DNA of 64,000 bases, from positions 21,386 through 85,385 of the forward strand of contig CAYJDM010000002.1 of NCBI GenBank assembly GCA_964368945.1. The letters run 5' to 3'. Under the pieces are notes generated by a model. That model was given only the letters and a program-made list of their open reading frames with translations. It searched no databases and was not told the DNA's origin. This stretch comes from an uncultured Candidatus Saccharibacteria bacterium (GTDB taxonomy: Bacteria > Patescibacteriota > Minisyncoccia > Phycocordibacterales > CAIZLB01). This document shows, piece by piece, positions 25,722 through 41,417 of the stretch (position 1 is its first letter; each line of letters opens with the position of its first letter). The position numbers and the translations under genes are program-made.

Positions 25722-25746
25722 TTTCAGGCGAAACAGCATTGCCAAA

Positions 25747-25781: not shown

Positions 25782-27158
25782 CTATTGTGTCGGCGGCGTC
25801 TCGGTTCGGTTTGCCAATCTCAAGCCCCAGAGGCTCAGGTCTATCTTGTTCTGGAACATGAGATAGTCTTCGCTGGGATTGAGCATTGGATTGATAACAT
25901 CGAGCGGCTCATCCGCGAGGCTGCCGATAAGGGCGAAAAGCCTCGTCTCCGCAGTCTGTGCATTGACTCTCCAGATCGAATCATCGAATGAGATTCGGCC
26001 CTGGTACCAGACATCTGGATAATCGGTGATTGCAAGTTCGTTTGGCACTGCGCAATAAAGCATTTCTTTTTCCTTGGCAGACCATACGCATTTTTCAGGG
26101 AGCGTTCGGAGGAAAAGATTCGTGACTTGTCCCGTCTTTATATCCAGAGAGTAGAGGTTTGGTGATCCTTGCTCTGATTCGCTATAGAGCAGCTTTTCTC
26201 CGCTTGGAGACATAAGGGTTGTAAGTCCTTTGATATTGCCCAAGAGTTTTTGCATATTCTTGCTAGCTACATCTATCTTATAGGCGTATCCATCGACATT
26301 GGCAGAAGGCTTTGTCGTGATTACAAGCGTCTTTTCCGTAGGCCATTGAACGAGCCATTCCTTGATCGGAGAATCGAATGCTGTAATTTGGCTTGTGCCA
26401 TCCGTATTTGATATGACTCCTGATGGTGTGACTTTTTGTGCGTAAAATATCTTTGATTTGCTAGGAGATAGCGCGATGCTCGTAATATTTCCGGCCAGCT
26501 GCTGTATTGTCAATTCAGGCGAAGTCGATGTAGCGGACATTGATTTCAATATACCGTATCTTGTCCTGATGATATCTGTATCCTGTGCCAAATCTCGCAT
26601 CAAGACGCTCTCTTTCGATGGGAATAATGCCTCGTATATTTTCGGATATGTCGTATTCGAAATCTTGAGCGTATTCAATGTCGTAGAAGCGGTTTCGTAG
26701 ATATGTCCATTTCCGCGATCCATATATTGCATTGTTTCTACTCGCGCTATCAGATTTCTTTGCTCCGGTCGAATGACTCGGGTTGTTGTTGCTGATGTCG
26801 TTCCATTCGCTACGACGATCGTTTCGGTGAGCGGAGTCGTTGTTGCGTATATGTCTTTTGTGAAAAAACCCATTCCGGCCACTGGTGCGCCATAAATCTG
26901 CCGCAGGATTGGCATGCCAAATGGCACGACATCGGTAGGCTGAATAATAGGAGGCAGATCCTCTAGGGTTGTGCTGGCATTTCCAGACACTGATCCCGTT
27001 CCTGATGGATTTCCGAAACCGCTACCCGTTACGACTTCTCGGCCGAACGTATCAAGCTGTGCGCTCTTGCTATTGAGATAGAAATAAAAACCGAGGATTC
27101 CACCGGCCACAATGCAAAGAACGATAACGATGGTTGTGATGATTGTGGAACGCTTCAT
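25782..27158 (-). CDS. Membrane-anchored TolB-like beta-propeller (PD40 repeat) protein. It is the last gene of the T4SS-like operon.
   Basis: An N-terminal transmembrane helix is followed by a PD40-like repeat (SPSGEKLLYSESEQGSPNLYSLDIKTGQVTNL). Confidence 0.45.
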   Translation of the reverse strand: MKRSTIITTIVIVLCIVAGGILGFYFYLNSKSAQLDTFGREVVTGSGFGNPSGTGSVSGNASTTLEDLPPIIQPTDVVPFGMPILRQIYGAPVAGMGFFTKDIYATTTPLTETIVVANGTTSATTTRVIRPEQRNLIARVETMQYMDRGNGHIYETASTTLNTLKISNTTYPKIYEALFPSKESVLMRDLAQDTDIIRTRYGILKSMSATSTSPELTIQQLAGNITSIALSPSKSKIFYAQKVTPSGVISNTDGTSQITAFDSPIKEWLVQWPTEKTLVITTKPSANVDGYAYKIDVASKNMQKLLGNIKGLTTLMSPSGEKLLYSESEQGSPNLYSLDIKTGQVTNLFLRTLPEKCVWSAKEKEMLYCAVPNELAITDYPDVWYQGRISFDDSIWRVNAQTAETRLFALIGSLADEPLDVINPMLNPSEDYLMFQNKIDLSLWGLRLANRTETPPTQ

Positions 27159-27220
27159 GGTTTTTTCAAATGCTTCTAAATTCTAACACAAGATATTGAA
27201 TATGGCTTCGCCATGCAAGT

Positions 27221-28261
27221 CTAAGGGTTTCTCGTCTGTGCTCGAGGCGTTCCAAAGGTAAGATCCCATCCTGATGATGGTATTGTTTTGAAAAAATTAT
27301 TACCCCCATACACCTTATTGGGGTCGTATATATCTACGGTATTTACCGATCCTGGCCCAGTCGTATCCTCGTAATATCCAATCATATTTCCATTTACATA
27401 CACTGGCGCGCCTACGGTTGGCTTGTATTTGGATATCAAATCCGGAGAGAGGGCGACGGACCCTGCGGTCAGCAGGTTGTTGCTATTTCCTCTCCTTGCG
27501 ATCGTATTCCTATCAGGGGTGAGATCGTCACTATATCCATATGAAGATATATTAAGTCTGCCATCAGATCCTCGGGATCCATTCGAGATGGCTGAGATTA
27601 ATTCATTTTGCTGCAATGATCCGGTTGGCAGTGCTGTTCCTGACCCGCCAACCACCCCTCCTGTTCCAGGCGATCCGGGCACAATTCGTATTACCGGATT
27701 CACGCTGAACCCTATCCCCGGATCCGCATCGATGACTTTGGGCACGAAGTTCGCGCTGAGGAGGTTGACGTTTATCGTGGACAGGATGAGATATGAGAGC
27801 AGTGCTAAGGCCAATCCTGACAATGCGGCATTGATCTTCTTGCGGCCCCCGCCGTCAATCTTGCCGGACATGGCGTCCACCGTGGACATCTCTATGCCTC
27901 CCACAACGATCATTATGACAGCGAGTCCAGCGGCCACGGCGACGCCGAATATATAGAGATTCTTGACGTACTGCGTCGCCCCTTCCCCTCCCAGATCGAT
28001 ATCACCACCCGTCTTCTCTTTCGCATTGGCTGGCGTTATCCCGTCTATGGGCAATGGCGCGAGGAATACGAACTTGCAGGATGCTCCGGTGCAGCTAGGC
28101 GTATACGCGTCGGCGGTCTTTGGGATGAACGATATTGAGAAAATAAAAACCGATACAAGCCCTAGCCATGTCGCGAGAATGGTTTGCGCGAAAATTTTGG
28201 TTTTTCTTTTGGAAATATGACCAGCGCGTGATGAAATCATTTTGATTATAGTATAAACCAA
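27221..28261 (-). CDS. Membrane protein combining a conserved two-helix (pilin-like) N-terminal module with a C-terminal 3D-domain (MltA/YocH-type) cell-wall-binding/lytic domain
   Basis: The 3D-domain motif is ...LLTAGSVALSPDLISKYKPTVGAPVYVNGNMIGYYEDTTGPGSVNTVDIYD. Its N-terminal 138 aa are nearly identical to the paralog at 28305..29351. Confidence 0.6.
   Translation of the reverse strand: MVYTIIKMISSRAGHISKRKTKIFAQTILATWLGLVSVFIFSISFIPKTADAYTPSCTGASCKFVFLAPLPIDGITPANAKEKTGGDIDLGGEGATQYVKNLYIFGVAVAAGLAVIMIVVGGIEMSTVDAMSGKIDGGGRKKINAALSGLALALLSYLILSTINVNLLSANFVPKVIDADPGIGFSVNPVIRIVPGSPGTGGVVGGSGTALPTGSLQQNELISAISNGSRGSDGRLNISSYGYSDDLTPDRNTIARRGNSNNLLTAGSVALSPDLISKYKPTVGAPVYVNGNMIGYYEDTTGPGSVNTVDIYDPNKVYGGNNFFKTIPSSGWDLTFGTPRAQTRNP
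27867..28105. repeat. Copy 1 of a 239-bp near-identical direct repeat (236 of 239 nt match 28984..29222)
   Basis: Direct comparison of the two stretches shows flanking homology of only about 85%. That pattern indicates a gene-conversion tract. Confidence 0.85.
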
Positions 28262-28304
28262 AATTACCGAATCATTTAGTTTTTTTGTTTTTTGCCGCCC
28301 TAAT

Positions 28305-29351
28305 TTATCTTGGCCTGAATACGTATGTGCTCAATCCCTTGTTGCCGGAATAATAGTTTTGCCATGAATCCAAAGAGAATTTGTCATCAACTTGCTGTTC
28401 TGAGCTGCTATTTGATATTATCTTGCCGCTTGTCGTGAATATTCCCACATGACCCGTATTCGATCCTTGAGTCGGAGAGATTACGATATCGCCAGGCTTA
28501 GCCTGTGTGGCATTGCTCGCGACCAGATAGAATCTATCGCTTCCGCTGAGCTCTGCATACATATCGGAGGTGCTTTTTCCATAATTGGCATTGCTTCCGG
28601 TTATCGGTTTGCCCAAGGCGTCAAATACAATGGCATTAACGGCATATGCGCATGCCAACCTTCCGCCGTTGGTTCCTGATATATTACATGTAGAAACGCC
28701 GAGTTTGCCCAAGGCGGCATCATTCAATCTCTGTGCCGCCGTTCCGTCTGATACATATCCTTGTCCCCCCATCCCTGATGCGATTGGCTGTCCTGGTCGA
28801 ACCGTGATAGTTGGATTCACGCTGAATCCGATATTCGGATCCGCATCGATGACCTTCGGCACGAAGTTCGCGCTGAGGAGATTGACGTTGACTGTCGAGA
28901 GGATCAGATATGACAAAAGGGCGAGCGCCAATCCTGAAAGCGCCGCATTGATCTTCTTCCTCCCGCCCCCATCTATTTTCCCCGACATGGCGTCCACCGT
29001 GGACATCTCTATGCCTCCGACGACTATCATTATGACAGCGAGTCCAGCGGCCACGGCGACGCCGAATATATAGAGATTCTTGACGTACTGCGTCGCCCCT
29101 TCCCCTCCCAGATCGATATCACCACCCGTCTTCTCTTTCGCATTGGCTGGCGTTATCCCGTCTATGGGCAATGGCGCGAGGAATACGAACTTGCAGGATG
29201 CTCCGGTGCAGCTAGGCGTATAGGCCTCTACTCGCTTAGGAGAAAAGACAGACAATGCAAAAAGAGACGATATTGTCAGAATCATCATTCCGAACATTGC
29301 ACCCTGCCCGATCTTTATCAGCTTTTTAAATGATGTTCTCGACATTGGCAT
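28305..29351 (-). CDS. Membrane protein combining the same conserved two-helix N-terminal module with a C-terminal CHAP-domain peptidoglycan hydrolase
   Basis: The CHAP-like Cys...His pattern is CAYAVNAIVFDALGKP...PGDIVISPTQGSNTGHVGIF. The N-terminal module (AYTPSCTGASCKFVFLAPLPIDG...LYIFGVAVAAGLAVIMIVVGGIEM...INAALSGLALALLSYLILST) is shared with 27221..28261. Confidence 0.6.
   Translation of the reverse strand: MPMSRTSFKKLIKIGQGAMFGMMILTISSLFALSVFSPKRVEAYTPSCTGASCKFVFLAPLPIDGITPANAKEKTGGDIDLGGEGATQYVKNLYIFGVAVAAGLAVIMIVVGGIEMSTVDAMSGKIDGGGRKKINAALSGLALALLSYLILSTVNVNLLSANFVPKVIDADPNIGFSVNPTITVRPGQPIASGMGGQGYVSDGTAAQRLNDAALGKLGVSTCNISGTNGGRLACAYAVNAIVFDALGKPITGSNANYGKSTSDMYAELSGSDRFYLVASNATQAKPGDIVISPTQGSNTGHVGIFTTSGKIISNSSSEQQVDDKFSLDSWQNYYSGNKGLSTYVFRPR
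28984..29222. repeat. Copy 2 of the 239-bp near-identical direct repeat
   Basis: See copy 1. Confidence 0.85.
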
Positions 29352-29373
29352 TTTTTCTATGAATCAGTCGCCC

Positions 29374-30504
29374 TTATAAAGCAGGCGTACTCGGTGTGGT
29401 ATCAAAGTCTATGACAAGCCCTGTAGCCGTCGACTGAAGAATCTTATTTAAATTATCAAGCTGAACCCTGACCGCGCTTCTGCCGATATCAGAATCGGAA
29501 TTCTTTCGAAGGGTAATGGTATTCTGGTTGGCAGGTATATCCACCCCATAAGTATCCACATCCCATGAATATGTAGGTCCAGAGTTTTTATTCAAAACAG
29601 ACTGGAAATATGGATATGCCGAGAGTCCGAGCTCGCTCTTCTTTGCCGTGATTGATCCTTCGAGAGAGCGGTTGAAAAGCAATCCATAAAGCGGATGATT
29701 TTCATAAAACAATGCTATTGGAAAATCATTCTCCACCGTCATATCAGCAACCGCTGCCGCCTTTCCGCTATTTGCTTCATATGTATCGACGCTTACATCC
29801 ACCGGCTGAACGATAATTGGTCCATTATACGTATATGAATTTCTGCCGAATCCTGAATTTTCGGCATCGGCTTCGTAATCGATTTTCCAATTGAATACGA
29901 TGTTTTTTGGATTGATTACGCCGCTCGATGTTCGTGGCATCGCTACGAAAATAAGGCTAGCTTCAGGCGTATAAAGGGCTTTACCTTTATAAAAAGGAGG
30001 GACATATACATTCGACTGCCATAAGAGATCCACATCGCCAGTAGCGAAGGTGAATTTCTGAGAAATGCTAGGCCTGTCTGACGGAGCAACGGTCAGGTCA
30101 ACCACATTGGTCTGTCCAGCCAACCCTGCCTGAAATACGAACTTTTTTGCACCAAGGTCTTGCTGTATGACCTTGCCATTCACCTTCCATGTAATCAGAG
30201 CCGAATTGATGTCGAAGCTATAGGCATTGACGGTGATCGTCGTCTGCTCTCCTGGCTTTGGAATTTCCGGCGTCACCGTCGTATCGAGCTGATCCTTGAA
30301 TTCAGGATATTGAGCAGTCGCTGGAGGAGCATACCCTTCGCTTCCGTCTCCGGAGCCATTGAGATAATTATCTGCCTGCGCATCGCCGCTCTGAGCGCGT
30401 GCGAATTGTCCGCCTACGATGAATGCAAGAGCGAAAACCAATGCCCCGTTCAAAATGAGCAGCGAGATCTTTCTTCGGTGATGTCGATTGTGCTTACTTC
30501 GCAT
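29374..30504 (-). CDS. Membrane-anchored extracellular beta-rich protein of the T4SS-like operon, with no recognised family
   Basis: An N-terminal transmembrane helix (LLILNGALVFALAFIVGG) is followed by a 340-aa Thr/Val/Asn-rich ectodomain. Confidence 0.45.
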   Translation of the reverse strand: MRSKHNRHHRRKISLLILNGALVFALAFIVGGQFARAQSGDAQADNYLNGSGDGSEGYAPPATAQYPEFKDQLDTTVTPEIPKPGEQTTITVNAYSFDINSALITWKVNGKVIQQDLGAKKFVFQAGLAGQTNVVDLTVAPSDRPSISQKFTFATGDVDLLWQSNVYVPPFYKGKALYTPEASLIFVAMPRTSSGVINPKNIVFNWKIDYEADAENSGFGRNSYTYNGPIIVQPVDVSVDTYEANSGKAAAVADMTVENDFPIALFYENHPLYGLLFNRSLEGSITAKKSELGLSAYPYFQSVLNKNSGPTYSWDVDTYGVDIPANQNTITLRKNSDSDIGRSAVRVQLDNLNKILQSTATGLVIDFDTTPSTPAL

Positions 30505-30589
30505 GGCGAGTTTTTTCTAGTATAGCACTTTTTTGTTTCGGCTATCTGCATATAAGCGGAAAAGTCGTCTTTATTCGCGGCCTGCGGCT

Positions 30590-31177
30590 TTAATTTAGAT
30601 TTTTTGAAATGAATTCATCTGCCGATTCCGCAATCTGGGCGGATATGACCGCCAATGTGAATCCTGGCAAGGCATTGATTATAGGAAGGAATTCTATGAT
30701 TACGCATATGCCTACAATCACCACCGTCTTTTTATTAATGGACTTGCCTGAAAGGAATTTGAAACCGCCCAAAAGCAGCCATCCCAGCGGAGCGATGATC
30801 AAGCTCGATAAAAAGCCACCCAGGCCTGGCAATATCTGAATGACAAGGCTTGCGAAATCCAGACAGATGGCCGCACATAGCGCTGAAAGGAAGATCGAAA
30901 TGGCCCAAATCTTCTTGGCAGCGCCTTTTTGGAAGTCTGATTCGCCTCCTCCGTTGAGCTTGCTGAAGCCGGCCATATCATTCTGCATTCTATTGTATCG
31001 AGGGCTTCTTGGTGAGGGTTTTCGCGGCGCAGAAACCGTCGTCGTCTGCGTTTCGATCTCTTGTTCTGCCTCGCTTTCATCAGAAACAGCCTCATTCTCA
31101 CCTCTCGGCTTGGAATTGAGGGGCCTCATCGTTATCGGTGCCTGTGCTGGATATTGGGTATTTCTATTGTCGACCAT
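30590..31177 (-). CDS. Small polytopic membrane protein of the T4SS-like operon, encoded directly downstream of virB4
   Basis: A charged N-terminal region is followed by three to four hydrophobic helices (IWAISIFLSALCAAICL..., LIIAPLGWLLLGGF..., VVIVGICVIIEFLPII...). Confidence 0.4.
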   Translation of the reverse strand: MVDNRNTQYPAQAPITMRPLNSKPRGENEAVSDESEAEQEIETQTTTVSAPRKPSPRSPRYNRMQNDMAGFSKLNGGGESDFQKGAAKKIWAISIFLSALCAAICLDFASLVIQILPGLGGFLSSLIIAPLGWLLLGGFKFLSGKSINKKTVVIVGICVIIEFLPIINALPGFTLAVISAQIAESADEFISKNLN

Positions 31178-31226
31178 ATAATAAGGCTATAAATAAGGAT
31201 AAAAAACAGATCCTGCCCTAACCAGG

Positions 31227-33248
31227 CTACTGATTGAGCAAAGACCCCATATTGCGATTCGCATTCTCTGTATCGCCTGCTTCCATGCGAGGCTGGCCAT
31301 TTGGAGTCTGTTCCTGGGCAGCATGCTGCTTTTCAGCCATTGCGGCATCGTGAATCTCCTGCCCTACGCTCATGACATCCCCTGCTAGGCCTCGAGATTT
31401 AAGATCTTCCTTGGCTTTTCGGATGGCGAGAACCTGAGAAGGGTTCGAAGTGATGATCTGATCCTCCGTATATGAGGCGATAATCTTGATTGCCACGTGT
31501 TTTAGCCCTGCAAAGAAGATTCCTTCACCTACATCAGACTCGAGAAGAAGGTATTTTTCCTCATCTGTAAGGTTGAAGGTCTTCTGGACGACATCAATCG
31601 ATGAAGGAGACTGCTTGAGGAGAACCTGGATAGAAGAGTTGGTGATGATCGGCAAACCGTACGGAGATCGGAGGAAGTCCTCGACATCCTGAGTGATGGT
31701 AGATAATCCGAGATAGTATTTTCGTCCTCGTTTCGCCAAACCATATAGGAATGAAGCCGTATCTTCGGATTTCATCATCCACCATGCCTCGTCTATTACA
31801 AGGAGCCGCTTCTTGAGGGTCTTGCGAACGGTATTCCAAATGAAGTTCATCACGATATACATTGCTACTGGCTTCAATTCGTCTTCCATATTGAGGAGCG
31901 AGAATACGACGAACTTCTTATTGATATCGATATTGGTAGGTCGGTTGATAAAACCCGCCCATGTTCCCTTCGTATATTTCGTCAATCGAGCCACGAGAGA
32001 CTCGCCTCCTTCCATTCCGGCCAATACGAGCTCGAAGTCGGACATCAGAGGTGGCTCTACTTCGGCAAAATTTGACTCTGGCGTGATGTCTTTGAGCGCA
32101 TACGTCTCAGTGATCGCTCGATCGATAATAGAGTCCTCTTCGGGCGTTAAACCGCCAAGCATGATGCGGAACAATCCTACCAGGTTCACGATATTGGATC
32201 GCAAAACATCCGCGCCGGATTCATCCTCTCTCGCGATAGGCAAATCGAATGGATTGATATGGTGTTCTGAAGTCAAAGAGATATTGAAATATCGTCCGCC
32301 AGTAGCCTCAGCCATATATTCATATTCGCGCTCTGGGTCGAGAACGATTACGTCTGTATCGAACATGAGGGTTCGGAGGATTTCGAGCTTCGTAGAGTAT
32401 GACTTTCCTGATCCGGCCTTGGCGAATGTCACGGAGTTATAGTTTTCGAGGCTGAACCGATCAAACAAAATAAGGCTAGAATTATGGCGATTTATGCCAT
32501 AGAGGATTCCTTTGTCCGATGTGAGGTCGAATGAGATAAAAGGGAAAACGCTCGAAAGCGGCGAAGAATTGAGCTTCGAATGCACCGAGAGCTGATCGTC
32601 TGCGATCGGAAGCACGCTTTTGAACCCCTGCTCCTGCTGGAAGAGGGCTGGCTTGAGGTATACGAGGCTCGATTCGAGCATTGATTTGATTTCAGACTCG
32701 ATCTTGTCCAATTCGGAATCAGAATCCCCATAGATCGAGATATAGAGCCCTACATCGAAGATTTTCTCCTGTGCCTGCTGCAGCTGATCTCGCAATCCTT
32801 CGAGGTCCTGGTATGCGGTATCGAGCATCGGATCTCGAACGAGGCCTTTTTCCTCTCGCAAATGGATTTGGCTCTGTACTTCGGCCACTTTCTTCTGGAA
32901 TGTTCGCAAAACCGAAGCCGTATCGATCGGATGGATGAAGATTGAGATATCGAAGATCTTGTCGAGGTTGATTACCGGCGCGAACCAGCTCTCAGAGAGG
33001 AATCGCGGATAAGATATTACGAAAAATGTTCGGACAATCTTGTCCCCAAGGTTGAGCGCTCGCGGGCTTATTTTGAGCGCTGAAGGCGCGATTACATCCT
33101 GAAGCTCGAGTACGCCGGCCTGATAGATTTCCTTCGGCAAAATCGAAGTAATCTGCGGATTATCGGCAAAATCGCCAAGCGGATTGGACATGCCGGCACC
33201 GTTTTTGCCGCCAGCATTCTTTTTTCCTAAAAAATCAAGTAGTCCCAT
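31227..33248 (-). CDS. virB4: Type IV secretion system ATPase VirB4/TrbE/PrgJ family
   Basis: Walker A FAKAGSGKS and Walker B RLLVIDEAWWMM are present. An N-terminal VirB4 membrane-associated domain and the conserved C-terminal block follow. Confidence 0.9.
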   Translation of the reverse strand: MGLLDFLGKKNAGGKNGAGMSNPLGDFADNPQITSILPKEIYQAGVLELQDVIAPSALKISPRALNLGDKIVRTFFVISYPRFLSESWFAPVINLDKIFDISIFIHPIDTASVLRTFQKKVAEVQSQIHLREEKGLVRDPMLDTAYQDLEGLRDQLQQAQEKIFDVGLYISIYGDSDSELDKIESEIKSMLESSLVYLKPALFQQEQGFKSVLPIADDQLSVHSKLNSSPLSSVFPFISFDLTSDKGILYGINRHNSSLILFDRFSLENYNSVTFAKAGSGKSYSTKLEILRTLMFDTDVIVLDPEREYEYMAEATGGRYFNISLTSEHHINPFDLPIAREDESGADVLRSNIVNLVGLFRIMLGGLTPEEDSIIDRAITETYALKDITPESNFAEVEPPLMSDFELVLAGMEGGESLVARLTKYTKGTWAGFINRPTNIDINKKFVVFSLLNMEDELKPVAMYIVMNFIWNTVRKTLKKRLLVIDEAWWMMKSEDTASFLYGLAKRGRKYYLGLSTITQDVEDFLRSPYGLPIITNSSIQVLLKQSPSSIDVVQKTFNLTDEEKYLLLESDVGEGIFFAGLKHVAIKIIASYTEDQIITSNPSQVLAIRKAKEDLKSRGLAGDVMSVGQEIHDAAMAEKQHAAQEQTPNGQPRMEAGDTENANRNMGSLLNQ

Positions 33249-33307
33249 AAAGTATGCGTATAGTATAGCGTATTTATTTTCATCGCGCTGATTTTTTGCA
33301 GAAATAA

Positions 33308-33338
33308 AAAGGACCGGTCGTTGAACCGGTCCTTTTGA
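33308..33338. terminator. Hairpin terminator inside the T4SS-like operon, immediately upstream of the virB4 promoter
   Basis: The hairpin aaaaggaccggtcgttgaaccggtccttttg is followed on the minus strand by ttttt and a TATACT -10 before virB4. Confidence 0.55.
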
Positions 33339-33758
33339 CGATTGAATACGGAGATGAATTGGTGTATCTCAGGCGAACGCCACTCGCTCAGGAGGCATGA
33401 GAGGCGAGATGACGGCTGCAAAGCCGGTCTCCGAACTGCAAATGACGTGTCCATCGAAAGAAAACTGGCGGAGATTTCTATTTTGCAAACCGTCGTCAAC
33501 GCTGTTCGTGAAGCCTTGCTTGGCCAGCCAGTCATTTGCATCGAACGCGTTTACGAAAGGGATTTGTACCGACATTGTGGGCTGTGAAGCATTCGGTCCT
33601 ATCCTGGTGATTGTTACGCTAAATATGTACATAGGTGGTGAGCGGGGTGCGCGGTTTTCTTGGGACTGCCAAGTCAGGTGCTTTTGCATGGACATAAAAC
33701 ACCATCGAAGCGATGGTGTCAATGATGTCCGGCTATTGGATTTCTTGTGCTGGCAAGC

Positions 33759-34406
33759 CTAGAAAAGCTGAATCGGCTTGTCCACATCGCCTGGATTGAA
33801 GATCTTGTAGAACAATTCGATCAATTCCTCGGTTCCGAGCGCTGCGATTCGCACTCCGCATCGCACAAGTCCTTGCTCAACTACCTCTACGCGCTGCTGC
33901 AGCTGGCTGCGCTTTTCTTCGAAGTCGCTATCTGCCTCGAGCTTCTTATCGCTCGCGGATTTTTTGGCAAAAAAGCCCGTCACATTCTTCGCAGAAGGCA
34001 GGCTGAGCTGAGAATACGGCACGACGATAAAGAAGCTTTTCGTCATGATATTCGTAGACTGGGTAAAGCTCTGGATGAATTCGATATATTCGCGAGTCTG
34101 CATCTTCATCAAATCCCCCACCTGGTCCTTGAGCCTTTCCTCAAGGAGGCTTATATATGGCCGTATATCGAGCCTTCGAGACTGCGAATAGATCTGAATG
34201 GAGAAGTTGAGCGAGTTCAGAAAGTTCTGAAACTGGAACAAAACCGATTGCTGCTCCTCAGAGGATTTGAGGGCGAAGTTGATTGATGAGGCCAAAAGAA
34301 CTGCGCGCATAGAGCCATCGCGCATGATGGCGATTCCCTCTCGGATTTCCTTGATTGGAACGAATTCCTGTGTAGCTTTGGCTTGAGCGCTTGTTTTGGT
34401 TGCCAT
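33759..34406 (-). CDS. Hypothetical soluble protein of the T4SS-like operon
   Basis: A 215-aa ORF starts ...VPIKEIREGIAIMRDGSMRAVLLASSINFALKSSEEQ. Its N-terminal motif is reminiscent of the N-termini of Gram-positive conjugation ATPases, but VirB4 downstream is complete on its own. Confidence 0.4.
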   Translation of the reverse strand: MATKTSAQAKATQEFVPIKEIREGIAIMRDGSMRAVLLASSINFALKSSEEQQSVLFQFQNFLNSLNFSIQIYSQSRRLDIRPYISLLEERLKDQVGDLMKMQTREYIEFIQSFTQSTNIMTKSFFIVVPYSQLSLPSAKNVTGFFAKKSASDKKLEADSDFEEKRSQLQQRVEVVEQGLVRCGVRIAALGTEELIELFYKIFNPGDVDKPIQLF

Positions 34407-34571: not shown

Positions 34572-35033
34572 CTATTCGCGTAGGCCGAATGATTCGCGGG
34601 TCGATAGTTTTTTGGCATCCTTTGAGAAAATGGTCTCATTGATATCCAGGCTCCATGCCAGATCCTTGAGCTTGCTGTCTGATACCCGCGGCACATGCGT
34701 CGTTCGGTATTCAGGTGAACCGACTTCGGGCGCTTTTGCCTTTGGAATGGCTTTATCGCGCTTTTTCCAGATATACAATCTGCTACCAGCGAAGAATCTG
34801 ATCGCTGATTCGAGCACATTGATGAGAGGGCGATTATTTACCTTATAAAAAGCCAAAGATAGCGAGACGATAGCCGCAAAGATCATAAGCGGAATGCCGA
34901 TGATGCCAGGCAGAAGCTTGTATGCGATAAAGCAGACGCCAGCGCCTCCTAAGAGGTATGCGAATTGGCGAAATGTGAACGGCCCGAATATTTTATCCTC
35001 TACTTCGATGAATTGAGGAACTTGATATCTCAT
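34572..35033 (-). CDS. PrgI/VirB3-like small membrane protein
   Basis: QFIEVEDKIFGPFTFRQFAYLLGGAGVCFIAYKLLPG... resembles the PrgI-family pattern (EDKIxG..T.RQ plus two transmembrane helices). It is encoded upstream of virB4. Confidence 0.45.
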   Translation of the reverse strand: MRYQVPQFIEVEDKIFGPFTFRQFAYLLGGAGVCFIAYKLLPGIIGIPLMIFAAIVSLSLAFYKVNNRPLINVLESAIRFFAGSRLYIWKKRDKAIPKAKAPEVGSPEYRTTHVPRVSDSKLKDLAWSLDINETIFSKDAKKLSTRESFGLRE

Positions 35034-35171: not shown

Positions 35172-35546
35172 TCAAGAATCCAATATATCGTCGGCTTCGA
35201 TATCGTTTCTCTTGCCGTCTGCCGTTCTTTCGGATGTCTGCTGCGCTTTGATCGCTTCGCGGATTGGAAGAAGGACGATGCCATTCACATCGATTGCAAG
35301 CTCGCTGACCTTATCCTTTGGCATATGGAGCTCGCTCTCCAATTTGTGGATCATCTGATCGGAGTGAATGTCTCCGAAGATGATATCTGCGATTGTTTTT
35401 TCCAGAATAAAAGCCTGATCGATATGGAGCTTATGCTTCTCCGTGATGCCCGCCATTTTTTTATCATAATCAAAATTCCTGATCGCTTCCTGAAAGAGCG
35501 GCGGCAATTTGATAAAACGATCGGCGGCCTGTTCTAGTGAATTCAT
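35172..35546 (-). CDS. Hypothetical protein of the T4SS-like operon
   Basis: This is a 124-aa ORF with no family signal. Confidence 0.35.
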   Translation of the reverse strand: MNSLEQAADRFIKLPPLFQEAIRNFDYDKKMAGITEKHKLHIDQAFILEKTIADIIFGDIHSDQMIHKLESELHMPKDKVSELAIDVNGIVLLPIREAIKAQQTSERTADGKRNDIEADDILDS

Positions 35547-35561
35547 GCGCCTATAATAGCA

Positions 35562-36515
35562 TTATTCTATCGGTTCTCGGTATGGATCCATCGGTCGAGC
35601 CTTCTCGGATTGCGGAACGATTTTATATGATTCCTTCGTGACAGAGCCGGTGATTCCGCTGAGCTTATCGCCCATGCTCGCGCCGATATTCGGAGTCGTC
35701 GATGGCATTGGCGCCTGAGGCTTGAATGGATCGATTATGTTTTCGGTATTCGTGCTTAGGTCAAGGCTGTCTGCGAGTGATGTGCCTATCGCCTGAGAAG
35801 GTGTCGCTGGTGTTGTCGATGTGGCAGGTGCGGCGGGCGCAGGCGCTGTTGGTGAGACCGAGACTTCGTCAGTGGGAGTCAAAATGCCGCGAAGGATATC
35901 TGATGTGCTTGGCTTTGATTTTGGCAAAACGAATTCCGGCTGAGCGATGCTCGGTGTCGGGTTTTCGATTTCGTTCAGAAGCTGCTTTGCGTCGGTATGC
36001 GGGACGTCTTGGATCGGCTCATCTGCATTGCCTGATAATATCTGAGCAGTCGGTGTCTTGAAGGACGGCAAAGGATTGCCTACTGGCATCTGGGAGAACA
36101 TATTCTCGATGAATATTTGTGATGCGGGATCAGTATTCATCGGATATGTCTTCAATTCACTCGAAAGGTCTTTGAAAACTTCATTGTATATTGTATCAAG
36201 GGCATTTGAAACATCTTCATACTCGACCGCGTTCTCTATGATCGTGTTCACGGATGTATTGATAGGGGTTTTGCCTAAGAGCACATCGTTTAACGTCTCA
36301 GTTATGTTTTGTAAGTCAATGTTTGAGAGCGTTATGTCGTTTGATTTTAGGGAAGATAAAATCTTTTCACGCAAGGTTACCGAAGCAATCAAAAGCTTTG
36401 GATTGGGTTTAATTTTGTTGATCGATTTTTCTTCATTCATATATGTGCTTTTAAGAAGATTTTGAGTTAGCTCGCGCCAAATCAGATTCAAGACGTGCCA
36501 TTCGGCGAGTGACAT
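35562..36515 (-). CDS. Hypothetical protein with a Pro/Thr/Ala-rich C-terminal region (T4SS-like operon). The start is probably at 36440.
   Basis: The ORF is long and lies in an operon context. It contains the low-complexity stretch PTAPAPAAPATSTTPATPS. Confidence 0.4.
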   Translation of the reverse strand: MSLAEWHVLNLIWRELTQNLLKSTYMNEEKSINKIKPNPKLLIASVTLREKILSSLKSNDITLSNIDLQNITETLNDVLLGKTPINTSVNTIIENAVEYEDVSNALDTIYNEVFKDLSSELKTYPMNTDPASQIFIENMFSQMPVGNPLPSFKTPTAQILSGNADEPIQDVPHTDAKQLLNEIENPTPSIAQPEFVLPKSKPSTSDILRGILTPTDEVSVSPTAPAPAAPATSTTPATPSQAIGTSLADSLDLSTNTENIIDPFKPQAPMPSTTPNIGASMGDKLSGITGSVTKESYKIVPQSEKARPMDPYREPIE

Positions 36516-39183
36516 CGTTGAGCTTTTTCATATGCTCATCGAGCTCATCCATCTGATCCTGCCAATGTTCTGCAGCAGCGATCTTTGAAGGATCTGTATC
36601 CGCGAGTGCTTTAACCGCATCGAATCTTGTTTCGGCCTTTTTGACCTCAGCTTCCCATCGGTTCTTTGTTGAAATGAAGGCTGGGTTTTCGAGAAGGGCT
36701 TTCTCTTCTTTCGCAAGATCTGAGAGCTGATCCTCAATACCCTTGACGCTGCCTTTGTTTCCTGTGCGTGCTTTTTTAACCGCGGCCAGTCGGGATGCAC
36801 CGGAAATCCCGCCGATTCGCTTTGCATTGAATTCTGCAGAATCAAAAGCCTCCTTTTCGAATCTCTTGTTATCGCCGACATTGTCCTTGTTATATTTGCT
36901 GATTCCACCTGCGCTTTTTGGACGAGCGACGACTTTCTTTACTGAAGGATCTTTTGCGTCTGGAACACGGATATAGTCGATTCCAAGGCGATCGAAATGA
37001 GCCGCCTTCTTATCCTCTTCCTGTCTGTCCTTTCGTGATTTGAACTCCTTTTCATCCTCTCGCCCCAATAATCGTCGCGGCGCCTTGATTTCAGAGAATC
37101 GATCGCGCGTCTTTTCATCACGAGCCTCTCGTGCTTTCTTCGCCTCAGTCAGGCTTGCTCCTCCGACTTTCACATCCTTGAGGTCGCCGATTTTATTATA
37201 CAAATACTGTCCGCCAATATGCTTCAACGGGCTTCTTGCGAGAAGCGTTTGAACGGCTTTGCTTTGCGAGAGCGTATTTCCCAAACCGCCGACCGCTCGC
37301 CTGCCGACATATCCGCCGACGCCGAATCCGTCCATTGCAAAAGCCTTCGCTTTTTTCTTGAAGCCATCTGCGAATTTGAAGCTATCAGCGAATTGATCTG
37401 CGGCGAGCTGTGTACCGAGCATCAATCCGATGATCATGATGAACCAGAATAGAGTTCCTGTTCCAGACACATTTCCCTGGAACAATGATGCAAAGCCAGA
37501 AAGGCCGACGCCAGAGTTGATGCCAGTCTGATCAGGGCCGACTCCTTTTCCAAAGACGATCAATGCAACGACATAGAAGATCGCCATATACGCCGGAGCG
37601 AATAAGAGATTGTCTTTCAATCGGCCTTGCCATTTGCTAGCCGCTCCTTTGAGCGGAGGAATGGCGCCACCGACGAAGCCGACAGGCGAAAGAATCATCA
37701 AGAAGATGAGCACGATTGATCTATAGAGGAATCGAATCGTTGCCATGAACATGGTAAATGCCGTGATGAGAATGAATGTTCCTCCTCCGAGGCAAACGAT
37801 GATGAGCTGGCCTGGGGTATTGATCGTTCCAAATTGGCTTGCGTCAGCAACGGTTTTATCTTTGTTTGTCCAAATAGTCTTCAGTCCCATGGCATTGACG
37901 ATACCGATTGAGATTCCGCCATCCCAGTCATTGCCATTCTCATCGCCTCGAGTAAGGGCGCCGTCGCTGCTATTGGCTATGTCTGCCGCAGCCAAGACGC
38001 GGGTATAGAATTGCAAGGCTATCAGATTGGATACGTCGATGACCGCTTTTGTGAAAAAGAGGCTGAAGTTCAATAAGAGAGCTGCGATCACCACCTTTAT
38101 GATGGTCTGTTTTACTCCATATCCATCCAATCCCAATATCGTCGCTATGCCGGCATACAATAGTATGAAAATGAATCCGACATTAATAAGATCTCGAATC
38201 GCTGACCAGCCGAGATAGATGGGTCCATTTCCTGCATTGCCCAATCCCTCATCGCGGATGAACTTTCCGAAGTTGAGAGTAAAGTCGATGCTGTAATTGA
38301 ATGCGACGCCAGCAGCCCAAAGAACCCAAGAGCTAGGCTTGAGGAATCCATAATATAATCCGAGAGCGATACATCCCTGGAAGCTGAAGTCTGGCAATGC
38401 TGATGCCAAGATGCCGTCCCCGTTCATGACAGAAGAAGAGCTTTCCCTGACGCAGTAAATAGGCTCATTTGCCATTCTCGCCGCAAAAGCTTCCTGTGCT
38501 TTGAGTCGTGCCATGACAGCGTCTTGATTCGCAATTATTGAACCTTCTGGTTTATTGATGGTATCTTTTATTGCCTGTGATGACGAGGCATTGATTATTT
38601 TGAACTTCTCAAAAACATCAAGCTTGGCGGCAAGCAAGGCGTTCCTGGCCTTTTCGTATTCCAAAGCCTGCGCCTTTAATTTTGGGTCCGCATTGATTTC
38701 GGCCGTGCTCTTTCTTTGGAAATTCAAATCATACGCCTTAGTCGCTTCGTCTTTTGTAAGCGCATCCAGTTTCAGGAACGCCGCGTATGACGCATCTTTT
38801 GCGAGCTGATATGCTGTTGCATAATTCTGCTTCGCAGGATCATACTGCTGCTGATAGACCCGGGCGAATACGCTTGATGCGGCATTCTCGCCGCTATATA
38901 CCGTTCCGTCTGCGCTACGGCCTGTTAGCTCATAGATATTCTTCTCATATGCTGCCTGTATGGAATCCTCTCTGCTCGGAGCGCCTTCGCCAAATAAGAA
39001 ATTATAAGCCGATACCGTCGGAGCGGCAATGATATCAAGAGCGCTCTGTGCCTGCGCAATTCGCGCAGTAGACGAAGAAAAAAGCCCAAATACCGAAAAA
39101 ACCAAGCAAGAAAGCGCTATTCCGTATCTGAAAGCACGGTTCTTGCCGCTATGGTTTTCTTTGGGAGAATCGAATCTATTCAT
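36451..39183 (-). CDS. VirB6/TrbL-like polytopic T4SS membrane protein with an N-terminal secreted domain and a ~320-aa highly charged coiled-coil C-terminal tail
   Basis: A signal peptide is followed by a central block of at least six transmembrane helices (WVLWAAGVAFNYSIDF..., FIFILLYAGIATILGL..., IIKVVIAALLLNFSLFF..., etc.). The K/E/R/D-rich tail runs DEKTRDRFSEIKAPRRLLGREDEKEFKSRKDRQEEDKK... Confidence 0.6.
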   Translation of the reverse strand: MNRFDSPKENHSGKNRAFRYGIALSCLVFSVFGLFSSSTARIAQAQSALDIIAAPTVSAYNFLFGEGAPSREDSIQAAYEKNIYELTGRSADGTVYSGENAASSVFARVYQQQYDPAKQNYATAYQLAKDASYAAFLKLDALTKDEATKAYDLNFQRKSTAEINADPKLKAQALEYEKARNALLAAKLDVFEKFKIINASSSQAIKDTINKPEGSIIANQDAVMARLKAQEAFAARMANEPIYCVRESSSSVMNGDGILASALPDFSFQGCIALGLYYGFLKPSSWVLWAAGVAFNYSIDFTLNFGKFIRDEGLGNAGNGPIYLGWSAIRDLINVGFIFILLYAGIATILGLDGYGVKQTIIKVVIAALLLNFSLFFTKAVIDVSNLIALQFYTRVLAAADIANSSDGALTRGDENGNDWDGGISIGIVNAMGLKTIWTNKDKTVADASQFGTINTPGQLIIVCLGGGTFILITAFTMFMATIRFLYRSIVLIFLMILSPVGFVGGAIPPLKGAASKWQGRLKDNLLFAPAYMAIFYVVALIVFGKGVGPDQTGINSGVGLSGFASLFQGNVSGTGTLFWFIMIIGLMLGTQLAADQFADSFKFADGFKKKAKAFAMDGFGVGGYVGRRAVGGLGNTLSQSKAVQTLLARSPLKHIGGQYLYNKIGDLKDVKVGGASLTEAKKAREARDEKTRDRFSEIKAPRRLLGREDEKEFKSRKDRQEEDKKAAHFDRLGIDYIRVPDAKDPSVKKVVARPKSAGGISKYNKDNVGDNKRFEKEAFDSAEFNAKRIGGISGASRLAAVKKARTGNKGSVKGIEDQLSDLAKEEKALLENPAFISTKNRWEAEVKKAETRFDAVKALADTDPSKIAAAEHWQDQMDELDEHMKKLNDVTRRMARLESDLARANSKSS

Positions 39184-39201
39184 GAGGAGCTTACTCTTAC
39201 C

Positions 39202-40569
39202 TTACTTCGTTAACACTTTGTTCAATGCAACCTTGATCAGATTGTTTACGATTGCCGTAATCATCTGATCGAATTTCTGTGCCATCACCAATCTGTTCTT
39301 GCTCTGATCGAGCGTGCTGTTGAGCTGAGATTCAATCAATCTTCCTGGCGTAACTATATCACATGTCTTGCTATCGTTCGGATCCTTGCACTTCTTGAAG
39401 TTGAGCCACCCATTATTCATTCCTACTTCCAACTGAACTGAATTCTGCTGTCGGCTGACTCCTGCATAGAATGCTTGGTTCGCCGCTATCGTTGCTCCGT
39501 ATGGATTGTTTTTATCATTCTGAGTCACGCTTATCCAGTCATCCCATGTGATATTTCCCGGTCTGGCCGCAGTCGATACCTTGCTTCCTCCTACGCTCGT
39601 CGTGACTCCTCCAAAGAATCTGCCGCTCGTTATATCCGATAATCCGCAAGTCATCCATGCACTCCCTCCATTTCCTCCAGTACCGCTATAATTCTGAGCC
39701 AGTCCAATCGCGATATTGACTCGGAAAGGCTGACAGACATTGACTCCAGTCGCTCCATAAGCGATATCTCTGATGATTGATCCTGCAGCCTTGTCTGCTA
39801 TTGATTTGAAAAAACGATCAGGGTTCTGGATAAAGGCCGGCTTGCCATTGAATCCGGAATTGGCCCAAGCAATGGTTGAGTTGGCGATCTGCTCGATCAT
39901 CGCATTGACGATGCACCAAGCGACCGCATCCCAGCTCACCCCCGTATATGTGGCGCCGATCGTATATGAACCGCTATGCGCTCGGGCATCTCCTACGATA
40001 TGCTGCCCAACCTGGCCTTTTTCCTCTACGGGCACTCGCGGAAGGATGATGCTTACCGCTGCATTGGCAACGGTTCCTCCGATGAAGTTGGATATCGCAT
40101 TTCGAATGGATGTGGCTAGGATATTGCCCAAAAGCGTTCCGACGGCGCATTGAGCCGCTCCTCCTGCAACTCCTCCCGCGCTAGCACCTCCGGCAGCGCC
40201 TCCTCCGGTTCCTTGATCCACTGCCCCCCCTACCGTCTGAACCATGCCGTTTTCATCTACATACTGAAATGCACCCGTTGTCGCAGAGCTGGGAAGGATG
40301 CTTCCTGGGGGAAGAGTGCTTTTGGTTCCGGCGCTTGCTCCGGCATTGGCGCCTGAAGCGGGAGTCAATGTCCCAGCTGTTCGAGTTGGCGGCGTAAGCG
40401 ATCCAGCCGTCTGCGCAAAAGCGACTCGAGGCAAGATGAATGCATTTATGAAAAGAATGCTTACGATCAATGAGACGGTGAGAGTCTTTTTTGCCCCAAT
40501 TCTCATTACCCTGCCGCATATTCGTGCAGCTTGAGAAAGGCGATGGGAGAAATATCGTGATTGTTTCAT
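39202..40569 (-). CDS. Secreted glycine/alanine-rich protein (T4SS-like operon), a possible surface or pilus-associated component
   Basis: A signal peptide (LIVSILFINAFILPRVAFAQ) is followed by Gly-rich tracts (GGGAAGGASAGGVAGGAAQ). Confidence 0.45.
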   Translation of the reverse strand: MKQSRYFSHRLSQAARICGRVMRIGAKKTLTVSLIVSILFINAFILPRVAFAQTAGSLTPPTRTAGTLTPASGANAGASAGTKSTLPPGSILPSSATTGAFQYVDENGMVQTVGGAVDQGTGGGAAGGASAGGVAGGAAQCAVGTLLGNILATSIRNAISNFIGGTVANAAVSIILPRVPVEEKGQVGQHIVGDARAHSGSYTIGATYTGVSWDAVAWCIVNAMIEQIANSTIAWANSGFNGKPAFIQNPDRFFKSIADKAAGSIIRDIAYGATGVNVCQPFRVNIAIGLAQNYSGTGGNGGSAWMTCGLSDITSGRFFGGVTTSVGGSKVSTAARPGNITWDDWISVTQNDKNNPYGATIAANQAFYAGVSRQQNSVQLEVGMNNGWLNFKKCKDPNDSKTCDIVTPGRLIESQLNSTLDQSKNRLVMAQKFDQMITAIVNNLIKVALNKVLTK

Positions 40570-41417
40570 TGTTCAGCGACAGTCAGGCGCGGCCAAATTA
40601 ATCCAGCCTCATTATCGGAATACAGTATATCATTTTGCTCGAAGTAGCTGTTGATTTCTCCGGCCGCTTTCGTCAGATTCTTGCTAGATTCTTCCGCAGT
40701 TCGAATAGAAAGCAATGCTCTGAGAGGATCAACCTTCTCTTGAGTTGCCAAAACGTCCAATGAATCACCGAACATCACATATGCATTCGCCAAATTGAGA
40801 TGCGATTGCGCCAAAGCCGCAGGAACCTTGATCTGTATGAGCGCCTGCCCGATTTGCTTATGGAGACGAGCTACTTTTCTTAGGTCGTTGTCTGCATATT
40901 CAGGCGTGCCTAGCAATAGATAGTTGTTTTTGATGACAGTGCCGGCATCATTGCCGTACTTTTTGACCTCATCATTCGTCATTGGGACAAAAAGCTGCAC
41001 ATTATTAAGGCTATATGCCACCTTTGGGAGATTTGAAACGTCTATCTGTCCTATCACTGAGTTGGCGATAGAGGCATCATCATCGCTCCTTTGCCCGCTC
41101 TCCCTTTCTGCATATGTTAGGAATATGCTCTTTGCGAACGAATCCGTCATGGTATCCGTTGGCTTTGGGGTAAAAGGATTATCGTCCGTTCCCGATGCCG
41201 TTTCATCTGATTCGATATTTTCCAGCGCGGCTTGCAATAGGGCATTGCTTGGATCAGTCGGCTTAAAATCTACATATACGGCGCCGGTCTTTCGTCGCTC
41301 TTCATTCAGAACTTTTCGCGCTTCCCCGATCTTATACGCGCCCAAACTCGCGATGACTGATAGGCAGATCGCGCTCAATATCAAGATCTTATTGCTGGGA
41401 ACTTTTGACGTGGCCAA
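40566..41417 (-). CDS. Membrane-anchored hypothetical protein, the first gene of the T4SS-like gene block
   Basis: An N-terminal transmembrane helix (ILILSAICLSVIASLGAY) is followed by a soluble domain. Confidence 0.4.
   Translation of the reverse strand: MATSKVPSNKILILSAICLSVIASLGAYKIGEARKVLNEERRKTGAVYVDFKPTDPSNALLQAALENIESDETASGTDDNPFTPKPTDTMTDSFAKSIFLTYAERESGQRSDDDASIANSVIGQIDVSNLPKVAYSLNNVQLFVPMTNDEVKKYGNDAGTVIKNNYLLLGTPEYADNDLRKVARLHKQIGQALIQIKVPAALAQSHLNLANAYVMFGDSLDVLATQEKVDPLRALLSIRTAEESSKNLTKAAGEINSYFEQNDILYSDNEAGLIWPRLTVAEQ

Follow-up and report, generated by a model that had tools for sequence, protein, structure and literature searches.

A large part of bacterial diversity belongs to the Patescibacteria, also called the Candidate Phyla Radiation, which appear to live at the expense of host cells. 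Few machines have been shown to be indispensable for this host-dependent lifestyle; one of them, as demonstrated in one species of the Saccharimonadia, is a system resembling type IV secretion systems (T4SS). In Ca. Southlakia, transposon-insertion sequencing revealed that T4SS genes, including a pilin array, are essential for epibiotic growth, and no recognizable coupling protein or relaxase was found for this system (Wang, 2023; PMC10633639). A phylum-wide survey described a monophyletic clade of patescibacterial VirB4 proteins related to MPF_FATA, with TrsD, PrgI/VirB3, VirB6 and VirB2-like pilins widespread, relaxases almost absent, and type IV coupling proteins (T4CPs) rarely encoded near virB4; in Paceibacteria, the T4SS genes lie close to dnaA, dnaN, rnpA, rpmH, and ksgA (Quinonero-Coronel, 2025; PMC12102498). 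The patescibacterial systems are considered new members of the T4SS superfamily (2025 FEMS review), and at the interface of a parasite and its host, tubular structures were observed that may be T4SS pili (bioRxiv 10.64898/2026.06.21.733656). Here, we describe a locus of this kind at positions 25782-41417 on the minus strand of a 64-kb stretch (the window) of a 168-kb contig. It probably represents a core chromosomal T4SS-like system of Paceibacteria, derived from monoderm conjugation machinery of the MPF_FATA CD1110/CTn2 type, which has lost its DNA-processing partners and acts as a contact-dependent machine for exchange with a host.

The initial annotation had proposed a T4SS-derived, non-conjugative machine. 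This proposal was borne out on the points tested and reproduces the published view (PMC10633639; PMC12102498); hence, the locus adds a further example to a known type of system. An origin-proximal T4SS-like cluster at a fixed chromosomal site is carried by nearly all Paceibacteria, which are ultrasmall bacteria. Like the T4SS of the Patescibacteria clade (Southlakia SEML1_0006-0019), the locus combines VirB4, TrsD, PrgI/VirB3, a probable VirB6 and VirB2-like pilin modules with putative hydrolases encoded beside virB4; no relaxase was detected in the window and no coupling protein adjacent to the block, and it is chromosomal, near dnaA, dnaN, rnpA, rpmH, and ksgA. However, trsD and virB4 are parted in the window by an atypical 510-nt insert, and whereas the Saccharimonadia locus contains six free, divergent pilins, the window contains two pilin modules, each continued by a tail of the enzyme type. 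In the main text of the studies cited here, there are no names for the Ig-like 376-aa, the TolB-like 458-aa, the TSP3-family 283-aa and the small post-VirB4 components. Essentiality was demonstrated in Southlakia only.

The locus also resembles the CD1110/CTn2 modules of the Firmicutes, exemplified by Clostridium botulinum pCDC3875, with which it shares a VirB4 that passes the CD1110 equivalog cut-off and is 32-35% identical. The order in pCDC3875 is VirD4-x-VirB6-PrgI-x-VirB4-x-SLT, and the window is collinear with it from VirB6 on (VirB6-PrgI-x-VirB4-small protein-hydrolase). In contrast to these modules, the window is without VirD4 (CD1115), relaxase, DUF3801 and SSB, its VirB4 is split into TrsD and a core protein, it occupies a fixed chromosomal position rather than a plasmid or an integrative and conjugative element (ICE), and it contains VirB2-like pilin modules. 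Gram-positive systems lack pilins (PMC12102498; 2025 FEMS review). The absence of a dedicated VirD4 and of a relaxase is shared with Bordetella Ptl, Brucella VirB, Helicobacter pylori ComB, and archaeal Ced, which serve protein export or DNA import, not conjugation (PMC12102498; 2025 FEMS review). However, the first three are MPF_T systems of diderms that contain VirB7, VirB9, and VirB10, and Ced is archaeal and needs a type IV pilus; the similarity of the window to Ced is limited to the weak ATPase-level resemblance to CedB and CedD discussed below.

The thirteen consecutive minus-strand genes of the initial annotation were recovered as 13 consecutive, co-directional open reading frames (ORFs) in the ORF list of the window. 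In order of transcription, the block is composed as follows:

40566-41417, minus strand: 283 aa, opens the block 22 nt past ksgA; one N-terminal transmembrane (TM) helix and a predicted extracellular body
39202-40569, minus strand: 455 aa, predicted to be secreted or anchored; a Gly-rich part is followed by a Cys-rich, helical one
36451-39183, minus strand: 910 aa, probable "extended VirB6-like" polytopic membrane protein, as judged by topology, orthologues, and position
35562-36515, minus strand: 317 aa, soluble, with a Pro/Thr-rich low-complexity region; lineage-specific
35172-35546, minus strand: 124 aa, soluble acidic protein of a family kept upstream of PrgI
34572-35033, minus strand: 153 aa, PrgI/VirB3-like protein with two TM helices (Pfam PrgI, PF12666)
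33759-34406, minus strand: 215 aa, TrsD-like protein (NCBIfam)
33249-33758, minus strand: lineage-specific 510-nt insert between trsD and virB4
31227-33248, minus strand: 673 aa, VirB4 ATPase of the MPF_FATA/CD1110 family, without the extreme N-terminal domain (NCBIfam, Pfam, and PDB profile)
30590-31177, minus strand: 195 aa, disordered N-terminus and three TM helices, directly after virB4
29374-30504, minus strand: 376 aa, putative surface protein in which a TM helix at the N-terminus precedes a row of three Ig/FnIII-like beta-sandwich domains
28305-29351, minus strand: 348 aa, VirB2-like T4SS pilin module (approximately residues 40-165) and an NlpC/P60-CHAP-like cysteine peptidase tail
27221-28261, minus strand: 346 aa, tandem paralogue with the same VirB2-like pilin module and an unrelated tail of 170 aa
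25782-27158, minus strand: 458 aa, closes the block; a TolB-like (PD40) beta-propeller anchored by an N-terminal TM helix

The ATPase Core

The identification of VirB4 is solid. The protein scores 363 bits against the NCBIfam conju_CD1110 profile (cut-off 325; E = 3.2e-108), and it also matches Pfam P-loop_TraG (1.4e-25) and the solved C-terminal domain of a VirB4 (PDB 4AG5; 1.6e-40). The canonical Walker motifs reported in the initial annotation are located at residues 276 (Walker A, AKAGSGKS) and 482 (Walker B, LLVIDE). Its nearest homologues, 82-92% identical, are all proteins of metagenome-assembled genomes (MAGs) of Paceibacteria/Parcubacteria; VirB4 proteins of plasmids do not exceed 35% identity, and the best among them (32-35%) include CD1110-family VirB4s of Firmicutes and Actinobacteria. 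By sequence identity, the protein groups with the Patescibacteria clade of VirB4.

The gene upstream, at 33759-34406, had been left unassigned in the initial annotation but encodes a TrsD. It matches the NCBIfam families VirB4_plasma (2.2e-11; profile positions 98-233) and TrsD (2.8e-7), as well as positions 2-131 of the conju_CD1110 profile (3.2e-5), and it carries a precomputed match to PF26593 (TraC-like). The VirB4 of the window spans positions 185-732 of the CD1110 profile. Thus, since TrsD matches the part of a CD1110-type VirB4 that the VirB4 of the window lacks, a single VirB4 is split over two genes, i.e., trsD and the core gene. In the related locus L036, the alignment of a Clostridium VirB4 likewise runs over both proteins. 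The option that TrsD is a paralogue of an N-terminal domain in the window's own VirB4 was rejected: hhalign gave it a probability of 0.2%, and the region matched by TrsD is the one that this VirB4 lacks.

PrgI, the partner of VirB4 in the membrane, was confirmed as well. The 34572-35033 product reaches 46.4 bits against PF12666 (cut-off 27; E = 5.7e-12), and its two TM helices lie within residues 27-62.

Conservation and Chromosomal Position

The locus was compared with 80 related loci from other MAGs (81 loci with the window), of which 37 are complete from ksgA to yidC. The source labels of these MAGs are Taylorbacteria, Campbellbacteria, Kaiserbacteria, Wolfebacteria, and Nomurabacteria. Among Paceibacteria-type MAGs, virB4 homologues gave at least 580 genome-contig matches, with 77-92% identity in the best 80 of the 580. 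Both virB4 and trsD are present in 79-81 of the 81 loci; the TrsD family was detected in 80 (~61% identity) and the PrgI family in 78 (~50% identity). In the complete loci, the families are represented as follows:

VirB6, 37 of 37
PrgI, 37 of 37
VirB4, 37 of 37
Pilin/458-aa cluster, 37 of 37
TrsD, 36 of 37
376-aa protein, 36 of 37
455-aa protein, 35 of 37
283-aa protein, 35 of 37
Small post-VirB4 membrane protein, 20 of 37

Gene order is invariant in this set: pcrA-ksgA-[block]-yidC-rnpA-rpmH-dnaA is kept in 37 of the 37 complete loci. The housekeeping flanks named in the initial annotation were identified by Pfam, with ksgA/pcrA (41440-44727) upstream on the same strand as the block and yidC (24999-25721) downstream, and the comparison of synteny showed the identical position and flanks throughout, consistent with the claim that the block is integrated in the core genome. 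In the same loci, median identity is 82% for VirB4, 58% for DnaA, 53% for PcrA, 41% for YidC, and 40% for KsgA. The excess of VirB4 over DnaA therefore indicates very strong purifying selection, and the pattern as a whole is typical of a core function that is inherited vertically and strongly constrained.

These data bear on the view that the block is a decaying, non-functional remnant of an integrated conjugative element. Such decay might be read from the separation of virB4 from its own N-terminal domain, from the 510-nt insert with its terminator that interrupts the cluster, and from one ORF pair that is parted by an in-frame stop codon. However, the split into TrsD and VirB4 is ancestral, being present in 80 of 81 loci, and the region past the in-frame stop is an independent conserved family. 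Furthermore, VirB4 is more conserved than DnaA, all ORFs are intact, and there is no compositional anomaly, as the GC content is uniform across the region and unremarkable for the block. The conservation data thus largely refute this view, and we give it next to no credence.

Coupling Protein, Relaxase, and Mobility

In agreement with the initial annotation, no coupling ATPase or relaxase was found in or near the block. Among the ORFs scanned in the 64-kb window, the VirD4/TcpA, relaxase, and transposase families were not detected; a tblastn search with the VirD4 of Clostridium (CD1115) gave no match, either in the window or among the 80 relatives; and when all ORFs within 10 kb on either side of virB4 in the 80 loci were clustered, no additional conserved ATPase or relaxase-like family emerged. 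The same clustering revealed no nuclease or DNA-binding component conserved in the locus. Flanking insertion sequences or integrases had been reported absent. No transposase family is present in the window, and the sole recombinase, a tyrosine recombinase at 50250-51221, ~9 kb from the block, is XerC/XerD-like and of the housekeeping type. No oriT-like or mobile-element feature turned up, although no search aimed at oriT was made. Since VirD4, relaxase, and transposase are locally absent and the position between housekeeping genes is fixed, the block is a core system and not an ICE; as far as the evidence reaches, i.e., over 64 kb of the 168-kb contig and 10 kb on either side of virB4 in the relatives, it is not a mobile conjugative element.

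A conjugation or DNA-export system could still be functional if its VirD4-type coupling protein and relaxase were encoded elsewhere in the genome. T4CP genes are often located far from virB4, as illustrated by 5,713 VirD4 homologues in 2,918 Patescibacteria genomes (PMC12102498), and the examined stretch covers less than the entire contig. In contrast, relaxases were found in only 103 Patescibacteria genomes, whose T4SSs are not distinctive, and the distal T4CP of Southlakia is not essential, whereas its T4SS is (PMC12102498). In addition, all 37 complete loci have the block fixed next to oriC and between housekeeping genes, which is not how a transfer module behaves, and features of the oriT or mobile-element type were not encountered, with the restriction on oriT given above. 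Conjugation with distant partners is, therefore, very unlikely.

The VirB6-Like Protein and the ORFs Upstream of PrgI

The 910-aa protein at 36451-39183 had been annotated as VirB6/TrbL-like. The TM map shows a signal/TM segment, a helical ectodomain of ~250 aa, ~6-7 TM helices, and, as its tail, ~300 aa of charged coiled coil. The window protein itself has no VirB6/TrbL family match in Pfam, NCBIfam, or PDB profile searches, the PDB search with the family profile returning coiled-coil noise only, and to this extent the claim did not hold. Nevertheless, 9 of 51 orthologues match TrbL/VirB6 (PF04610; best E = 6e-5), and the topology agrees, as does the location of the gene upstream of PrgI, which is the VirB6 position also in pCDC3875. 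Within the TM core, residues W326, N372-F-S374, D383, N386, and R488 are invariant in the family. The protein is thus probably, though not provably, VirB6-like.

Between this gene and prgI, the initial annotation placed a single gene at 35172-36515. These positions contain two ORFs in the same frame, parted by a TAA stop codon. A single gene decoded by read-through or an alternative genetic code was rejected: the stop is a TAA, the standard code is used elsewhere, and the downstream part constitutes an independent conserved family. This family, represented by the 124-aa protein, is present in 31 of 81 loci with ~30% identity; no TM helix was predicted in the window copy or in 14 orthologues, and the window copy has no Pfam or NCBIfam match. 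The upstream ORF, of 317 aa, probably starts at the ATG at 36440, which would give a protein of 292 aa. It has no TM helix and no Pfam or NCBIfam family match, and a homologue was found in one related genome only (L002), the other match (L001) being a short contig of the same organism.

Pilin Modules With Unrelated Tails

The two proteins encoded at 27221-29351 had been described as cell-wall hydrolases, with their VirB2-like pilin modules overlooked. These modules were recognized via orthologues: T4SS_pilin (PF18895) matches 42 of 49 syntenic orthologues (best 2.4e-10) and 124 of 150 database representatives (best 9.5e-19), whereas the window module alone reaches only E = 1 against this profile. 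The modules of the window align with those of the orthologues over invariant Gly and Lys positions. A PDB profile search with the pilin family returned only coiled-coil noise. The two proteins are 86% identical over their 176 N-terminal residues, and the likeness ends at the domain junction; at the nucleotide level, ~530 nt are common to the two genes, with a core of ~180 nt that is 98-100% identical. This pattern suggests duplication or gene conversion of the module, combined with replacement of the tail.

The tail of 28305-29351 had been assigned to the CHAP family. Its Pfam scores are below threshold, both for NlpC/P60 (22.0 bits against a cut-off of 23; 1.6e-4) and for CHAP (20.1 against 26; 9e-4), and its match to CwlO in the PDB is at 0.02, but a Cys232/His301 motif pair (LACAYAV/GHVGIF) is present. 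The "3D" domain assigned to the tail of 27221-28261 found no support in Pfam, NCBIfam, or the PDB, whether the single sequence or a profile of the tail family was used, and the resemblance to 3D/DPBB-like domains is at the motif level only. Homologues of this tail exist on other pilin modules. Overall, the profile searches that the initial annotation had recommended sustain VirB4 and PrgI, whereas VirB6/TrbL, CHAP, and 3D in the window proteins are below the cut-off or without a match.

Tails are the rule among relatives. They measure at least 60 aa in 41 of the 49 syntenic orthologues, where they form 33 groups unrelated by BLAST, and at least 100 aa in 103 of the 150 database representatives. 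Domains recognized in the tails of these representatives are SLT (18), M15 (4), 3D (3), NlpC/P60 (3), CHAP (3), and YkuD (1). Thus, besides the pilin families and scattered matches of one or two members to unrelated families, the recognizable added domains are peptidoglycan enzymes. In this subfamily, the pilin module is usually not a free pilin. Five database homologues (P0305, P0316, P0319, P0342, and P0361) contain 2-4 pilin modules in a polypeptide of 500-890 aa, which is odd for a VirB2-like pilin.

One may speculate that the VirB2-like module is a handle for the trafficking or display of fast-swapping C-terminal "cargo" domains. We put this forward as a tentative idea, with rather more doubt than belief. 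If the tails were indeed displayed on, or delivered via, a T4SS pilus and served to breach the wall of the host, they would constitute a polymorphic effector system that determines host range and is built into the pilin. Such an arrangement is absent from the main text of the papers cited here.

Anchored and Surface Proteins

Four proteins of the block are predicted to be anchored and extracytoplasmic, i.e., the Ig-like protein, the TolB-like propeller, the TSP3-family member, and the Cys-rich helical protein. The initial annotation had listed several secreted or anchored proteins of no recognizable family. In the present analysis, the 376- and 458-aa proteins were assigned as Ig-like and TolB-like, respectively.

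For the 376-aa protein, AlphaFold2 yielded from an alignment of 66 sequences a model with a predicted local distance difference test (pLDDT) score of 88.2, in which a helix (residues 8-39) is followed by an all-beta region. The top Foldseek matches of this model are tandem FnIII/Ig arrays (titin, phage Hoc, and the SiiE adhesin); flexible linkers keep the TM-scores low. The family was found in 77 of 81 loci. No Pfam domain was detected in the window protein or in 95 of 96 database homologues, the remaining one carrying PF06832. A TcpC/VirB8-like protein with a double NTF2 fold had been considered for this gene but was rejected, as the confident model consists of three Ig-like sandwiches. Structure prediction, another recommended check, was thus informative here, whereas the model of the 455-aa protein (pLDDT 55.8) was unfit for a fold search.

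The 458-aa protein has its TM helix at residues 6-24. Its own matches to TolB and Peptidase_S9_N in Pfam and NCBIfam are weak, and the profile of its family matches 12 TolB structures (E = 2.6e-4 to 2.6e-3). This family was detected in 59 of 81 loci, and its gene is invariably located between those for the pilin modules and yidC. In the 283-aa protein, the TM helix spans residues 12-30. A TSP3-type Ca-binding motif is found in 16 of 34 orthologues, and Pfam TSP3_bac matches 11 members, whereas the window copy has neither the TSP3 motif nor a Pfam or NCBIfam match. The 455-aa protein contains a TM/signal segment (residues 34-52) and six invariant cysteines. Longer homologues carry an SLT transglycosylase domain (PF01464), and the protein may be tied to a VirB1-like role in cell-wall hydrolysis. 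Finally, the 195-aa protein has no Pfam or NCBIfam match, but the profile of a small membrane family found directly after virB4 in at least 48 loci matches its residues 99-190 (E = 2.6e-13); genes of this family start at a median of 6 nt past the virB4 stop codon. The conservation in the Paceibacteria locus of this small protein and of the Ig-like, TolB-like, and TSP3-family surface proteins may go slightly beyond what is described in the published main text.

Whether all these proteins belong to the machine can be questioned. Only the genes from VirB6 through the pilin modules might form it, with the 283-, 455-, and 458-aa proteins, and perhaps the 376-aa protein, being unrelated envelope proteins that happen to be encoded in the same conserved region near the origin; such a restriction would be compatible with the other explanations considered here. 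The outer proteins have no T4SS family matches, and synteny is no proof of a functional link in this region, since the housekeeping genes ksgA and yidC are just as syntenic. However, the outer genes are co-directional, tightly spaced, and present in 35-37 of the 37 complete loci, the 455-aa relatives carry the SLT domains typical of VirB1, and the outer proteins are all predicted to be extracytoplasmic. Hence, a machine made of the central genes only has a real chance of being correct, but we doubt it.

Proposed Role of the Machine and Direction of Transport

In the contact-dependent system that we favor, VirB4/TrsD hexamers would dock on PrgI and VirB6 in the membrane and power the extraction of the pilin modules and their polymerization to form a conduit or short pilus. 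The hydrolase tails fused to the pilin modules and the SLT-type relatives of the 455-aa protein could open the cell's own peptidoglycan, that of the host, or both, while the Ig-like, propeller, and TSP3 proteins may form a surface stalk or an adhesion layer. The machine would mediate contact-dependent exchange of macromolecules with a host rather than plasmid conjugation, either by exporting effectors or by importing host material. For the Paceibacteria system, a role in protein secretion or cell contact is what we infer by analogy.

The same machine might serve as an importer, i.e., a device for T4CP-independent uptake, as in H. pylori ComB and archaeal Ced, that would supply a cell unable to make nucleotides with nucleic acids or other macromolecules of the host. 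The lack of a coupling protein and relaxase nearby fits this option, and VirB4 gives weak matches to the DNA-import ATPases CedB (1e-8) and CedD (7e-4). Furthermore, the phylum-wide survey proposes import of DNA or other macromolecules (PMC12102498), and a preprint connects the clade of patescibacterial VirB4 proteins with the use of host RNA as food (bioRxiv 10.64898/2026.06.21.733656). However, the CedB and CedD matches are far under the cut-offs and reflect the shared ATPase fold only, and the locus is without a conserved nuclease or DNA-binding component. In Southlakia, the T4SS is essential but comEC is not (PMC12102498; 2025 FEMS review); therefore, uptake by the classical route is not the essential role. 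Import is, in our view, unlikely. The direction of transport is not readable from the sequence; we rank a contact or export device slightly above an importer.

Several points weigh against a contact-dependent exchange machine of the composition outlined above. Its function is extrapolated from one species of the Saccharimonadia, and the membership of the 458-, 455-, 283-, and 124-aa proteins is deduced solely from conserved synteny. The VirB6 and the pilin modules of the window were recognized through their orthologues only. No ORF matched the VirB8, PrgL, or TcpC families, and no VirB8-like bitopic protein with an NTF2 fold was found. The numerous VirD4 homologues of Patescibacteria mentioned above, mostly encoded far from virB4, also belong here. 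Finally, a pilin with a tail of 170-290 aa may not polymerize, in which case the module may be the membrane anchor of a VirB1-type hydrolase.

The window is a clean example from the Paceibacteria that leaves the published picture unchanged and provides targets for structural and genetic work. What the comparison adds is an ATPase that is more conserved than DnaA, hydrolases built on pilin modules with highly variable tails, and surface proteins of the Ig-like, TolB-like, and TSP3-family types.

The Insert Between trsD and virB4

The spacing between trsD and virB4 is at most 64 nt in 62 of 69 relatives, mostly 1-60 nt. In the window, these genes are separated by the 510-nt insert, which matches neither the related loci nor any other part of the window. 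It contains an orphan ORF of 106-117 aa (33369-33722), whose cluster members derive from the same organism only, and it ends with a GC-rich hairpin of 13 bp (33336-33307, minus strand) followed by the T-run TTTTTATTT just upstream of virB4. The z-score of its fold is -3.4. Because of this insert with a strong terminator-like hairpin upstream of virB4, the block probably comprises at least two transcription units, and the designation as a single operon in the initial annotation is doubtful. An intron or noncoding RNA was considered and rejected, as Rfam scans with gathering and E-value thresholds gave chance-level results only and similarity to related loci was lacking. In six relatives, this site is occupied by a four-helix-bundle gene; the idea that the insert is what remains of such a gene was dismissed as well, because tblastn gave no match.

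The latter genes are small, carry the signature LIVWQK...SNIAEG, and are found at varied intergenic sites in the T4SS locus of 11 relatives. We take them to be members of the "23S rRNA intervening-sequence protein" family. They look like a recurrent small mobile or selfish insert. In six relatives, they sit exactly at the trsD-virB4 junction. The genes are located as follows:

L006, 9494-9999
L014, 4315-4756
L023, 2113-2538
L034, 2975-3458
L065, 1498-2035
L070, 2521-3026
Further loci with such genes: L005, L007, L057, L063, and L064

Flanking Genes and Other Features of the Window

Downstream of the block lies the convergent rpmH-rnpA-yidC group (24349-25721), which is adjoined by dnaA and dnaN; dnaN, dnaA, and yidC were named by Pfam. 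Two further features were noted on this side:

25743-25781: bidirectional terminator-like hairpin with an 18-bp stem, between the convergent yidC and the last gene of the block
22435-22897: likely oriC, the dnaN-dnaA intergenic region with a cluster of DnaA boxes

This cluster, at 22512-22748, consists of five TTATCCACA-like boxes, of which two are perfect. Since dnaA, dnaN, and the cluster adjoin the flank, the block starts ~3 kb from the probable oriC. The entire window holds 25 DnaA-box matches, as compared with 12 expected. Extra boxes, three perfect ones and several with one mismatch, are located near a tRNA cluster, at 51997-52118 and 54515-54962.

On the plus strand, 3.7 kb past the block, 45150-46238 encodes a cell-wall endopeptidase with a LysM-LysM-Peptidase_M23 architecture and DipM/EnvC-like matches. 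M23 and LysM are among the extra domains on VirB1-like proteins in the 2025 survey (PMC12102498), but this endopeptidase is more likely a division-type enzyme than a part of the T4SS. At 12804-14537 (plus strand), between a purH-like fragment and ruvB, lies a lone gene for a type IV pilus ATPase of the PilB/GspE type (T2SSE, 1.8e-114), with no pilus genes adjoining. The stretch at 11067-12700 is richer in GC and contains overlapping, Arg-rich, implausible ORFs on both strands. One of these, of 274 aa (11844-12668), has a partial match to purH (IMP cyclohydrolase/MGS-like) only, and the stretch may represent a degraded or unusual gene region.

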